Part shown: positions 1 through 6,903 of the stretch, in pieces
Layout of the letters: each line of letters begins with the position of its first letter
How positions within the stretch are numbered: the stretch's first letter is position 1
Source: a virus
Taxonomy: Duplodnaviria; Heunggongvirae; Uroviricota; Caudoviricetes
DNA: 6,903 bases
Virus record (IMG/VR): IMGVR_UViG_2740892423_000009
Strand: one strand, 5' to 3'
Position numbers and translations under genes: made by a program
The notes under the pieces: generated by a model
What the model was told of the DNA's origin: nothing
Database searches by the model: none
The model's input: the letters and a program-made list of their open reading frames with translations, nothing else

Positions 1-15
1 ATCTGTTCTCCAATG

Positions 16-60
16 ACTAGTCTAAAAACTAGTATTAAGACTATCACTTATTTAAGTGAT
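16..60. repeat. two adjacent inverted repeats downstream of the 149-aa gene
   Basis: ACTAGT (16-21), loop ctaaaa, ACTAGT (28-33); ACTAGT is self-complementary. Then ATCACTTA (43-50), tt, TAAGTGAT (53-60), a perfect 8-bp inverted repeat. Could be an operator or a weak terminator; no clean U-tract follows on the minus strand. Confidence 0.4.
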
Positions 61-90
61 ACTGGTTGTCTGGAGATTCAGGGGGCCAGT

Positions 91-540
91 CTACCCAGCA
101 TCATCGTTTATGATTCTAGTGATTATGGTTTCGTATGCAGTATCACAGCAATTGCACTTATAAGAAACTTTTGTGTCTAATCCTTTATAATCTTCTAACA
201 ATCCAACTAAAACCATATCTTTGCGTTCCAGCACATTGCTTGCTTTATCTAATACAGCTTCCTTATCTCTATTCTTTTTCTTAGGAAGTTTTAATGATTC
301 TTTATAGCATTCAAGACACGCACCTTGTTTTTTAAGAGTTTTGAAAGCAATTGTTCGCGTTGTGCTATGTTTCTTGCAGGTTATAGAAACGGGTGTATGT
401 TGCCCTTTCCACGGCACAACAAAACCGTTATAGATGTACCCCAACTCATCACAACGTTTAATGGCAATAGGTTCATAGTCAAGAGGCGTTTTTCTTGTAA
501 ATCCGGTGTAGTTGATATATTCAGCAAATAAAATCTCCAT
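91..540 (-). CDS. hypothetical Cys-rich, putative zinc-binding protein, 149 aa
   Basis: SD GGAGGA 4 nt upstream of the ATG at 540-538. Motifs C-x2-H-x16-C-x2-C (ITCKKHSTTRTIAFKTLKKQGACLEC) and C-x-C-C (YKCNCCDTAY) suggest a zinc ribbon or treble-clef. Tyr/Gly-rich N-terminus (EYINYTGF, LGYIYNGF). No HNH or GIY-YIG signature I can confirm. Confidence 0.7.
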   Translation of the reverse strand: MEILFAEYINYTGFTRKTPLDYEPIAIKRCDELGYIYNGFVVPWKGQHTPVSITCKKHSTTRTIAFKTLKKQGACLECYKESLKLPKKKNRDKEAVLDKASNVLERKDMVLVGLLEDYKGLDTKVSYKCNCCDTAYETIITRIINDDAG

Positions 541-548
541 GATTCCTC

Positions 549-578
549 CAAATAAAAAAGCGACCGAAATTGGTCGCT
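549..578 (-). terminator. rho-independent terminator (bidirectional-looking) between the 115-aa and 149-aa genes
   Basis: Stem agcgacc (559-565) and ggtcgct (572-578) with loop gaaatt. On the minus-strand RNA it is followed by UUUUUUAUUU (revcomp of 549-558), which runs straight into the GGAGGA SD of the 149-aa gene. On the + strand it is followed by cgtatttatt. Confidence 0.55.
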
Positions 579-592
579 CGTATTTATTAGAG

Positions 593-940
593 TTAGATGT
601 ATTCCATTATATACCCGGTAAATCTGAGTCCTTTAATGTAGTAATTAGTTGTGCCTACACACACCGCGCGTGCATCACCCAGACAGTTAAAACTATAAGG
701 ATTAACTACATCGACTTCTTGCCCGACACGAAAACGATACTTAGGACGTTTAGCCAATGTAGCGACACAAAACACGGTCCCTTTTTCATGATCGCGGATA
801 CATTCTTTATATTGTTTATGTTTAACTCTCTTCGCCTCAAAATCATAAGTCATTGATTCTGGACTAATGCCATTAATAAAAATACCGGAAAGCTGATCGA
901 CCGGATAAGTAGGAAATTCAGTGAAAATATTTTTAGCCAT
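593..940 (-). CDS. hypothetical protein, 115 aa
   Basis: ORF from the track with SD GGGGGT 5 nt upstream of the ATG. Protein MAKNIFTEFPTYPVDQLSGIF... contains four Cys (ECIRDH, FCVATL, FNCLGD, AVCVG). No family recognised. Confidence 0.65.
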   Translation of the reverse strand: MAKNIFTEFPTYPVDQLSGIFINGISPESMTYDFEAKRVKHKQYKECIRDHEKGTVFCVATLAKRPKYRFRVGQEVDVVNPYSFNCLGDARAVCVGTTNYYIKGLRFTGYIMEYI

Positions 941-5200: not shown

Positions 5201-6012
5201 TCCATCTGGCGTACTTGCTTACGTACTTTCAGGAATGAATCAACGTTAATGTTTTCAATTGGTACGGATAAGCCATATTTTTCATTTGTTAGGTAGTGGA
5301 AAATCTGGTCCACGCCGTTAGTGCTAGCCTCAATAGCATTGGTTTCAAGGTTACGAATCTTTAAGCCCATAACATCGACTGCCACTTGGCTATTTGGTTG
5401 AAGGATATCAACACCAGCAGCAAGAGATTTGTCATCACGACGTAACACAATACACATGGTTGCAATGCCGTTACCCTTGTAAGCATCGGTCCAGTCTGAG
5501 CCTAAATGCTGTTTTGCCAGTGACAAAGCGGTGTTAGGATTCTTACCCGTGCGGAACTCAACCTCCAACACTTTCCGGTATTCTTCTTTAATGTTGCCCT
5601 TATCGAGAATGCCATCACGGATCGTCATGTTCTTACCAACAAGAACATTTTTATTATCGATAAACAGTGCTTTGTAGTGGTCGATTTCACCCTCTGCTAC
5701 AGCGAAGATTTGCACTAACTTATTGTTTTCTCTTTTAGAAATTGCTTTGTAAACGCAGTTTGTACCAGTACGGGTAACACCGAAAAGAACGGGTAATACT
5801 GTCTTCGGATCGTTTGATGTTCCTAGTGTCACCGCATTATCTGGGCTTTGTACTTTAGGTGTTTTTGGTGCGCCTACAGTGGAAGCGATCAAGGTCATTG
5901 CACCAGCAGCCATACCGATAGCGACTGCGGTCATAACAGAAAATGTTGCGGCTGCCGCCATCCCCGCCGAAGCACCAGCGATCACCGCGCCTACCAATAT
6001 TTCAAATCCCAT
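2236..6012 (-). CDS. central tail fibre / host specificity protein, lambda gpJ family, 1258 aa
   Basis: Long uninterrupted ORF with SD GGGGGTGA 3 nt upstream of the ATG. Residues ~495-790 form three tandem FN3-like segments (e.g. [28 protein letters not shown]...YDYRVCAFG). Residues ~940-1000 ([32 protein letters not shown]...[12 protein letters not shown]) and the C-terminal ~180 aa ([17 protein letters not shown]...[12 protein letters not shown]...[16 protein letters not shown]...[16 protein letters not shown]) resemble the equivalent lambda J regions as I recall them (lambda: SGTLSNVTIAENCTINGT...DDHPFDRQIVVLP...VDMPAGRGNVILTFTL...VQVMVIKKQALGISVV). Confidence 0.93.
   Translation of the reverse strand: [1258 protein letters not shown]
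2848..2982 (-). repeat. about 30-bp in-frame tandem repeats encoding decapeptide fibre repeats I-x-x-A-K-I-x-x-G-A
   Basis: Protein [43 protein letters not shown] (residues ~1011-1055). DNA shows recurring ttttagc / atcttggcg / attttcgctg / attttagccg units. Confidence 0.6.
3178..3615 (-). repeat. in-frame degenerate repeats encoding an Ala-rich coiled-coil segment of the J-like protein
   Basis: Protein repeats ...[11 protein letters not shown]... / ...[17 protein letters not shown]... / ...[17 protein letters not shown]... / ...[12 protein letters not shown].... Matching DNA repeats on the + strand, e.g. ggtcaatcttacttgcgcttgc (~3281), gatcaatcttagttgaacttgc (~3393), catcaattttagcatcggcattagc (~3505). 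Confidence 0.6.
5866..6000 (-). other. hydrophobic Gly/Ala-rich N-terminal segment of the J-like protein (residues ~5-49), predicted membrane-like or helical
   Basis: Translation [45 protein letters not shown] has no charged residue between E4 and K50. This is not how lambda J begins, from memory. Confidence 0.5.
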
Positions 6013-6431
6013 TATTCACCCCCGAATCTATAAACTTGTTCATAGTCAATGTCTGAAACAGGAATGGTCATCCAGATACCATCTTCTTCAACGAGGCCAT
6101 AACCGGAATAATGAGGAACTACGGAATAATAATTACGGTTTCCTAATTTGTGGGCTGTGACCAGTAAGTCGCCGTCCTGTAAATCATCAGTGACTAATTT
6201 GAAATGTTTCTTTATTGGTTGAAGGATGTTTGAATATCCGCTTAATTCTTTGCAGATTTTCAAGCCTTCTTCTTTAGTTGAATATTTTTTATAAAGAGAA
6301 TTATATAGGTCAGTACCAGCGAGAATATCGATGATCTTACATGCAATGAGATTGCAATCATTCTCGCCTTGAACGAACTCCTGACCTATTAAAGAATTGA
6401 TGTAATCGGTGATAAGCCTAGTTTTTAGCAT
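6012..6431 (-). CDS. NlpC/P60-family tail assembly protein (lambda gpK C-terminal-domain-like), 139 aa
   Basis: Start moved to the internal ATG at 6431-6429, which is preceded by GGAGGT plus a 7-nt spacer. The longer 191-aa ORF in the track would overlap the upstream ORF by about 110 nt. Protein MLKTRLITDY...ENDCNLIACKIID has a candidate catalytic Cys (codon 6354-6356) in a D-C-x-x-L context followed by conserved His residues, as in NlpC/P60 papain-like domains of gpK proteins. Stop TAA overlaps the J-like ATG by 1 nt (TAATG). Confidence 0.75.
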   Translation of the reverse strand: MLKTRLITDYINSLIGQEFVQGENDCNLIACKIIDILAGTDLYNSLYKKYSTKEEGLKICKELSGYSNILQPIKKHFKLVTDDLQDGDLLVTAHKLGNRNYYSVVPHYSGYGLVEEDGIWMTIPVSDIDYEQVYRFGGE

Positions 6432-6477
6432 GTTGAATACCTCCATGCTGTTATTTACTAGGCTTAGGGAGAAGGGA

Positions 6478-6822
6478 TTATTTCTTAGAGCTAAACCACT
6501 TCGACTCGCTTTGCCACTTCCCGGCACGAGAGAAGAATAGATCGTTCTCGTTTCCAACATAGGATCGGTGGATACCATCGGAGGCATGACTACGAGCGTT
6601 TTTATCTAGAACTTCCCAGATACTATTAAGCTGAAATTCTGATTCGTTTTTACACTCATCATCTTCATGTTCGATGTTAATACCGATGGAATCGACTACC
6701 CCACGGAAAACAGGGTAAGTAGTTTCAACCTTGCCCGTGTTGGGGTTAAGGAAAACCATCTCGATTTTCACATCAGATTTATCGAATTGCTTGTTTCGAA
6801 TCAGGCTAATTGTTGTGGTCAA
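6478..6822 (-). CDS. hypothetical tail-tip assembly protein, 114 aa; possibly a stand-alone N-terminal (MPN-like) half of a gpK-type protein
   Basis: ORF from the track. Its first codon is TTG (revcomp of 6820-6822), immediately after an in-frame TAG, with GGTGG about 10 nt upstream. Internal GTG/ATG starts lack a good SD. No clear JAMM HxH motif seen, so the MPN assignment is positional inference only. Sits directly upstream of the NlpC/P60 gene. Confidence 0.5.
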   Translation of the reverse strand: MTTTISLIRNKQFDKSDVKIEMVFLNPNTGKVETTYPVFRGVVDSIGINIEHEDDECKNESEFQLNSIWEVLDKNARSHASDGIHRSYVGNENDLFFSRAGKWQSESKWFSSKK

Positions 6823-6903
6823 CTAAAACTGGCCACCGCGTTAGAGTTTTTCCAGTATCGGTTTTCTGATTCGTTTGGTGGTAACCCACCATTATATTCG
6901 TGC
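6819..6903 (-). CDS. 3' end of an upstream tail gene (5' part lies beyond the window edge); possibly a gpL-like minor tail protein
   Basis: Minus-strand frame open from the window edge to a TGA at 6819-6821, translating ...HEYNGGLPPNESENRYWKNSNAVASFS*. The stop overlaps the TTG start of the next ORF by 2 nt. Function guessed only from position upstream of the gpK-like/J-like genes. A second frame is also open over these 81 nt, so the frame choice is tentative. Confidence 0.3.
   Translation of the reverse strand, partial: HEYNGGLPPNESENRYWKNSNAVASFS

Follow-up and report, generated by a model that had tools for sequence, protein, structure and literature searches.

Homing endonuclease genes (HEGs) of the T5orf172 type code for proteins in which a nuclease is accompanied by zinc fingers: 87% of them carry CapR, DUF723 or DUF4379 fingers, in many cases as repeats resembling beads on a string, and HEGs are located at boundaries of genetic exchange (Barth, Nguyen & Seed; PMC10055350). 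The DNA-binding domains of HEGs have also given rise to a regulator, namely, CapR, the capsid-operon repressor of the PLE satellite of Vibrio cholerae, whose four cysteines are required for DNA binding, as judged from Cys-to-Ser mutants (Netter et al.; PMC8096241).

The DNA analysed here, which we refer to as the window, is a stretch of 6,903 nucleotides. Its source, the draft contig JRQF01000015.1 of 6,981 bp, of which the window makes up nearly all, comes from Escherichia coli 77-30253-3, an isolate from a copper-fed pig; the window starts 152 nt inside this contig, and an ORF with an HTH_Tnp_1 domain comes next there. The contig terminates in IS copies at both ends, which is expected since short-read assemblies break at repeats. 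We consider it very probable that the minus-strand ORF at 540..91 is the 5' remnant of a free-standing phage HEG, of the architecture 'zinc-finger repeats + T5orf172/GIY-YIG nuclease', which resides in a temperate E. coli prophage and was inactivated by IS2.

The open reading frame at 540..91 and its junction with IS2

A first-pass annotation, made from the sequence without database searches, had described the product of this ORF as a Cys-rich protein of 149 residues. The frame does have 149 codons, from the ATG at 540..538 to the TAG at 93..91, and it holds the motifs C55-K-K-H58, C75-L-E-C78 and C129-N-C131-C132; what did not hold was its completeness, as described below. An E. coli protein of 345 residues matches the fragment with a phmmer E=2.8e-92, and 116 relatives are found at E<=1e-3, which shows that the 149-codon ORF is a genuine coding sequence. 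In view of the strong homologues of the minus-strand frame, the overlapping plus-strand ORFs at 13-180, 135-284 and 325-531 were not considered further. The two features that meet at the end of the frame are as follows.

1..93, minus strand: IS2 left end, comprising the terminal inverted repeat and the leader to just before the start of insC, assigned by identity to IS2 copies.
94..540, minus strand: codons 1-149 of a 345-codon gene of homing-endonuclease type, the N-terminal remnant after IS2 insertion.

In megablast searches against phage records, positions 1-93 were recognized as the left end of IS2 at 100% identity. Extended to 1-95, the identity is 100% with the IS2 copies of Stx phages and 97-99% with those in other phages, and the window as a whole gave matches at its two IS ends only. 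On the gene strand the junction reads ...GAT GAT GCT GGG / TAG ACT GGC CCC..., such that the in-frame TAG (91-93) is the first triplet of the IS2 terminal TAGACTGG; the stop codon is thus supplied by IS2 and is not the gene's own. The TAG closes the frame at once, and so the IS2 end adds no IS-encoded tail. The fragment corresponds to the front 43% of the 345-aa product, and the '149-aa protein' would be a truncation product of a native protein of 345 residues. The small stand-alone regulator that had been proposed is thereby replaced by the 5' part of an IS2-disrupted 345-codon gene. Likewise, the paired palindromes that had been taken as part of the regulation of the gene are present downstream, at 18-43 and 42-61, but both lie within IS2 and are unrelated to the gene.

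Positions 94-1000 of the window are present in three of the 5,426 complete E. coli genomes searched, and in E275a and ETEC4090 the gene is uninterrupted, with 345 codons. These intact alleles run on past the IS2 point as ...RIINDDAG/CRHCGS..., and therefore IS2 landed exactly between codons 149 (G149) and 150 (C150), in the gene's own orientation and with duplication of CTGGG. The reciprocal junction was found on a draft contig (JRGD01000226.1, GCA_000754845.1; hereafter L007), whose assembly accession differs and which perhaps comes from another isolate. Positions 1-700 of L007 hold, in this order, the IS2 right end, CTGGG and codons 150-345, after which come the gene for a Peptidase_M15_3 endolysin and, beyond an ORF of 65 aa, that for a serine recombinase. 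The last five bases of the window before IS2 (...GCTGGG) are the same CTGGG. A 5-bp target duplication is typical of IS2, and CTGGG reads as just such a target-site duplication. When the half present in the window is joined to L007 96-686, with one CTGGG removed, a 345-aa ORF results that matches the E275a allele except for E2G; that the rejoined halves give a perfect ORF argues for an insertion that is both recent and simple.

In a wider protein collection the 149-aa form occurs on two contigs and the 345-aa forms on hundreds, from E. coli and Shigella, and the exact junction between IS2 and the gene is absent from the 5,426 complete E. coli genomes. For the downstream half, RefSeq lists only M171-G345, as a 175-aa 'hypothetical protein' (WP_032083333.1).

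A second, independent IS2 was observed in the same gene in HCP5S3_I4 (L001 2604-3934), the strain nearest to the window among these genomes, at codon ~171. This copy lies 66 bp further 3' than that of the window, has the opposite orientation and the duplication CCATC, and also leaves an N-terminal piece of similar extent. Two IS2 insertions in a gene that occurs in 3 of 5,426 complete genomes could be due to chance, to an IS2 hot spot or to selection against the nuclease in lysogens.

Zinc modules of the fragment and of the intact protein

In the intact protein, three modules of ~70 residues follow one another in tandem, and every one of them has a C-x2-(H/C)...C-x2-C site; we recognize this array because the ligand positions are strongly conserved. 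Each module is made of a helix, a small sheet and the ligand site, and an alignment of module 1 with module 2 stays in register (z = 5.1 vs shuffles). The parts of this array that remain in the window are the following.

289..492, minus strand: zinc module 1, complete, residues ~17-84, from the CapR match, ligand conservation and AlphaFold2.
378..376 (C55), 369..367 (H58), 318..316 (C75) and 309..307 (C78), minus strand: ligands of module 1.
94..267, minus strand: zinc module 2, incomplete, residues ~92-149, with C129 (156..154) and C132 (147..145) kept and C150/C153 lost.

Three lines of evidence bear on these modules. First, the 149-aa fragment matches the CapR homology domain of Pfam (PF21817) with 31.4 bits (cut-off 24.2, E=2.1e-7), the best stretch being residues 23-64; the full-length alleles score 22.0 and 23.7 bits, slightly below that cut-off. 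Among 60 aligned relatives, CapR is found in 49, DUF723 in 25 and DUF4379, a 'probable treble clef zinc finger', in 21, together with MUG113 (10/60) and T5orf172 (3/60), both of the GIY-YIG clan, and HNH_3 (1/60).

Second, the ligands are conserved across these 60 homologues. In module 1, C55 is kept in 54, H58 in 39, and C75 and C78 in 51 each; in module 2, C129 is kept in 55, 37 homologues have H and seven have C at position 132, and C150 and C153 are kept in 57 each. Further conserved cysteines are C203 (57/60), C224 (58/60) and C227 (55/60), and C131 is not conserved. Residues C55, H58, C75, C78, C129 and C132 are thus predicted to be a genuine, conserved set of metal ligands. The C-x2-H...C-x2-C motif that had first drawn attention is a real ligand set, whereas 'C-x-C-C' is correct by its letters only: the actual pair, C129-x2-C132, provides the first two ligands of module 2, and its partner pair C150/C153 was cut off by IS2.

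Third, module 1 is laid out as a helix, three strands, a short helix at 66-71 and a helix at 76-84. An AlphaFold2 model was obtained for P0001, a 345-aa relative 95% identical to the fragment (mean pLDDT 91.5). In AlphaFold2, with a pLDDT of 93-97 across residues 21-70, the turn of a beta-hairpin carries the first ligand pair, and a helix begins at the second, an arrangement as in treble-clef folds. The metal module suggested by the first-pass annotation, for which a treble-clef fold is probable, is supported by the CapR match above threshold and by the DUF723 and DUF4379 matches of the relatives, and so is the expectation of conserved Cys and His residues, since the ligands are kept in most of the 60 homologues.

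A word-indexed homologue search with the fragment alone returned no matches, and the relatives came from the full-length allele and an exhaustive HMMER search. The 116 relatives found in this way (E<=1e-3) have a median length of 397 aa, nearly all of them being 260-900 aa long, and most show two to eight matched stretches, that is, repeated modules. Weak tblastn matches (27-38% identity) were obtained to genes annotated as 'endonuclease' or hypothetical in T4-like phages and in a Vibrio phage. No meaningful family was found in NCBIfam, and sequence searches of the PDB yielded chance-level matches only, whether the query was the fragment or a profile of the nuclease domain.

The same zinc-finger repeats were also observed together with different C-terminal domains (P0023, P0024, P0028, P0033, P0049, P0050 and P0053). 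In some such relatives a motif, ...LDFYLP...IE(Y/C)(D/Q)G.QH..., is reminiscent of nucleases of the Vsr/PD-(D/E)XK type, one has HNH_3 plus NUMOD4, and one is a fusion to a DNA ligase. This variety suggests that the DNA-binding array may have been shuffled among nuclease types.

The C-terminal nuclease domain

The nuclease domain of the intact allele, with a GIY-YIG fold, comprises ~115 residues (~228-345). It is missing from the ORF of the window, which stops at residue 149 and leaves the domain beyond IS2. In an alignment of 25 C-terminal domains, Y241, K250, G252, R262, E292 and D311-G-x-T-E-T316 are invariant, and the residue order Y...(Y/F)G...R...E is that of GIY-YIG enzymes; going by motif order, the conserved residues would be equivalent to Y6, Y17, R27 and E75 of I-TevI. 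The domains of the 25 relatives match MUG113 in 15 cases (best E=1.6e-6), T5orf172 in 13 (best E=6.4e-7) and GIY-YIG in six. For the protein itself, the C-terminal domain reaches E=0.02 and 15.9 bits against MUG113, below the cut-off of 22.3, and the full protein has no match to T5orf172 of Pfam at E<=10. Because its own domain scores below threshold, the nuclease is predicted to be of the GIY-YIG/T5orf172 type from its fold and motif and from its relatives.

Matches to PHROG families are of two kinds: PHROG 681, 'endonuclease', is found with the full-length allele at E=9e-43, and PHROG 559, 'HNH endonuclease', is matched at E=6e-8. An HNH identity was nevertheless rejected, since the alignment with PHROG 559 covers the zinc-finger repeats only (residues 34-236) and no HNH family of Pfam matches the fragment or the full protein at E<=10. 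The link to nucleases that had been made from the sequence is thus right in that the intact gene has an attached nuclease, but its type is GIY-YIG/T5orf172 and not HNH; a search for HNH or GIY-YIG catalytic residues had been proposed, and those present are of GIY-YIG type (Y241, R262 and E292, invariant in the 25 relatives), and no HNH profile was found. An anti-defence role, which had also been put forward, gained no supporting evidence, the PADLOC defence models matching 0 families for the fragment and for the full-length protein.

A mobile cassette between a 115-aa gene and the endolysin gene

Upstream of the start codon, and in the flank beyond, the following features were recognized.

548..579, minus strand (T-run included; stem-loop 579..558): terminator-like hairpin, GAGCGACC-AATTTC-GGTCGCTT then TTTTATTTGG, from fold and sequence.
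545..549, minus strand: Shine-Dalgarno (SD) sequence GGAGG, 4 nt (AATC) before the ATG at 540..538, read from the sequence.
94..592, minus strand: the part within the window of a 1081-bp cassette (terminator, SD and gene), from blastn of L002 against L005 and L004.
593..940, minus strand: upstream 115-aa phage gene, whose last ~100 nt (593-~690) are diverged between alleles with and without the cassette.

The hairpin has a stem of 8 bp with five GC pairs, followed by TTTTATTT; a folding energy of -21.7 kcal/mol was computed for the region (z = -4.8 vs dinucleotide shuffles), and the T-run passes directly into GGAGG. The terminator hairpin running into the SD was therefore correctly seen in the first-pass annotation. 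The separate regulation at which it was taken to hint needs to be reworded: terminator and SD do accompany the gene, but they travel with it as part of a mobile cassette and are not a host regulatory arrangement, and no sigma-70-like promoter was found in positions 1-1100 of the window.

The extent of the cassette comes from blastn, in which L002 3419-4499 has no counterpart in L005 or L004 (L002 4500 corresponds to window position 593). The 1081-bp insertion has the TAA of the 115-aa gene directly before it and ends within the ribosome-binding site of the endolysin; in most related prophages, which are without the cassette, the endolysin gene begins 10 bp past the 115-aa gene, as read at the empty site of L004 (2017.18.04CC) and L005 (PK8568). 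The cassette is missing from 52 of the 55 complete E. coli genomes that match, and two of the 52 were inspected. On the side of the 115-aa gene, identities are 33/50 and 43/50 in the two 50-nt intervals nearest the junction and 46-49/50 beyond, and on the endolysin side they are 48-50/50; within the 115-aa protein, allele differences are confined to the last 18 residues. Positions 593-690 are a likely candidate for the recognition or cleavage region or for a co-conversion tract. A sporadic distribution, a precise intergenic site by conserved late genes and a one-sided divergence are the marks of a free-standing HEG.

In a related prophage, that of E. coli 2017.18.04CC (L004 158-3548), other cargo fills the interval between the serine recombinase and the endolysin, namely, a GIY-YIG nuclease family protein (391 aa), a hypothetical protein (185 aa) and a DEAD/DEAH helicase, which suggests a spot for variable cargo, possibly related to defence.

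The remainder of the window

At its other end the window runs into a further insertion element.

6811..6903, strand not assigned: end of a second IS3-family element, which truncates the tail gene ORF at 6478-6822 (minus strand), assigned from regions labelled 'IS3 family transposase', in thousands of E. coli records, to which it is 100% identical.

The truncated ORF matches PHROG 2048, 'tail protein', over model positions 255-362 of 390 only, its N-terminus being truncated. The window is a 6.7-kb prophage piece with IS elements at both ends, and the prophage is probably defective. Two minus-strand ORFs of 56 and 92 aa, at 1664-1834 and 1853-2131, have hydrophobic N-terminal segments and weak PHROG matches; on one side of them is a 1258-aa tail-tip gene and on the other the lysis end, and their products could be lysis components of holin or spanin kind, or else immunity proteins. 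Another ORF, at 6012-6587 (minus strand), is listed with 191 aa from an upstream ATG and overlaps its neighbour, and in the source annotation it is a 139-aa DUF6950 protein (L006 399-818); the shorter start is probably right.

Proposed mechanism and alternative readings

If the intact gene worked as its family suggests, its zinc modules would read an extended DNA site in the manner of beads on a string, and its GIY-YIG domain would cut the allele that is without the cassette, close to the 3' end of the 115-aa gene. The cassette would then be copied in by recombinational repair, cassette-bearing alleles would be shielded from cutting by the diverged flank, and the terminator upstream of the SD would keep expression of the nuclease low and uncoupled from the late operon. 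What remains in the window encodes one complete zinc module and a second with half its ligands, with no third module and no nuclease. Most likely this copy is a non-functional pseudogene fragment of recent origin; a truncated product could still be made, its SD and start codon being intact.

The alternative that fares best, which we nonetheless regard as improbable, concerns the intact protein, which may not be selfish but a domesticated prophage nuclease directed against competitors such as phages or satellites, as is Odn of ICP1, or else a regulator without catalysis. T5orf172 nucleases have indeed been co-opted in this way, with Odn as an example (PMC10055350); the gene adjoins that end of the prophage which holds lysis and integration functions and is a place of variable cargo, and in 2017.18.04CC a GIY-YIG nuclease and a helicase occupy the same region. 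However, a precise intergenic presence or absence among conserved genes, combined with divergence of one flank, is what homing predicts, no PADLOC defence model is matched, and the catalytic-type residues are conserved.

A second alternative, for which we see very little chance, is that the 149-aa product is functional alone, as a zinc-finger DNA-binding protein that either represses or, being dominant-negative, occupies the target of the endonuclease, in parallel with the domestication of CapR. That CapR is itself a nuclease-less derivative that represses a phage operon (PMC8096241) speaks for it, and so do the SD, the ATG and the one full module that the fragment keeps, predicted with pLDDT above 90, the clean end of the frame at the IS2 TAG with no IS-encoded tail, and the comparable N-terminal piece left by the second IS2 in HCP5S3_I4. 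Against this, the 149-aa form is known from only two contigs, as opposed to hundreds for the 345-aa form, and the halves rejoin to a perfect ORF without further changes, as after a recent event with no sign of selection. Furthermore, module 2 is short of two nearly invariant ligands and would probably misfold, and since the relatives use two to eight modules for recognition, a single module is unlikely to give specificity.

The bolder form of this idea, that the IS2-made fragment is expressed as a nuclease-less DNA-binding protein that occupies the endonuclease site or represses the neighbouring late and lysis genes, is a speculation to which we give even less credit: CapR-like activity is unlikely because the truncation is rare and recent and module 2 is crippled. 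Were it true, the locus would be a snapshot of the first step in domesticating the DNA-binding domains of HEGs into CapR-like regulators of satellites and phages, and the second IS2 66 bp away would hint at selection for loss of the nuclease in lysogens. Finally, a complete 149-aa gene under its own regulation, coding for a small Cys-rich regulator, an HNH accessory or an anti-defence protein, can practically be dismissed, for although its zinc motifs are real and PHROG 559, 'HNH endonuclease', is matched at E=6e-8, this match is limited to the zinc-finger repeats (residues 34-236) with no Pfam HNH at E<=10, the stop codon is that of IS2, and nearly all relatives are 260-900 aa long.

The preferred reading, an IS2-split HEG, has consequences mainly for annotation, and its significance beyond that is little. 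The gene is a previously unannotated example of the zinc-finger HEG class, here in the form of an IS2-split pseudogene; the RefSeq hypothetical proteins WP_159382560.1 and WP_001767182.1 (345 aa) can be recognized as a zinc-finger-repeat GIY-YIG homing endonuclease of temperate E. coli prophages, and the fragments WP_032083277.1 and WP_032083333.1 as its IS2-split pseudogene. The HEG architecture of ICP1 and T5-type phages is extended to a junction in the lysis region of an enterobacterial prophage, and a defined pair of empty and occupied sites becomes available for homing tests. The case also calls for caution when reading from sequence only: an ORF that ends at an IS terminus is a truncation, and the palindromes beyond it belong to the IS.

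Comparison with known systems

The closest likeness is to the T5orf172-type HEGs of the vibriophage ICP1, T5-like phages and others (Barth, Nguyen & Seed; PMC10055350). Both have N-terminal tandem zinc modules and a C-terminal nuclease of the GIY-YIG clan, with the ligand pattern C-x2-(C/H)...C-x(1-2)-C in common, and both are intergenic and free-standing by conserved late genes, with presence/absence polymorphism and diverged flanks. Unlike those HEGs, which belong to lytic phages, the present one is hosted by a temperate E. coli prophage, which has a serine recombinase; its nuclease falls below the thresholds of Pfam T5orf172 and MUG113 and has a distinctive invariant D-G-x-T-E-T; and the copy at hand is cut by IS2 and has no nuclease.

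CapR shares with the fragment a domain family and four metal ligands, the two pairs being ~16-26 residues apart, and both consist of DNA-binding modules, predicted ones in the fragment, without a nuclease. They differ in that CapR is encoded by a satellite gene that is selected and conserved and whose operator has been demonstrated, whereas the fragment results from a rare and recent truncation by IS2 and its module 2 is crippled, and in the first ligand pair, which is C-x2-H in the fragment and C-x2-C in CapR.

More distantly, I-TevI and the Seg proteins of T4 are also modular, joining a nuclease to DNA-binding parts that include a zinc finger, with free-standing or intron-borne mobility and tight control of expression. 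No sequence similarity to I-TevI or Seg was detectable in the PDB sequence searches; in I-TevI the nuclease is N-terminal, so that the order of domains is reversed with respect to the 345-aa protein, and the DNA-binding modules are of other kinds, namely, a zinc finger, a minor-groove helix and an HTH.

As a disruption by IS2, a member of the IS3 family, the locus is of the usual sort, with 100% identity at the terminus, a 5-bp duplication (CTGGG here, CCATC in HCP5S3_I4) and a split ORF. One point is unusual when compared with ordinary IS2 disruptions: two independent insertions, 66 bp apart, have hit the same rare gene in two strains.
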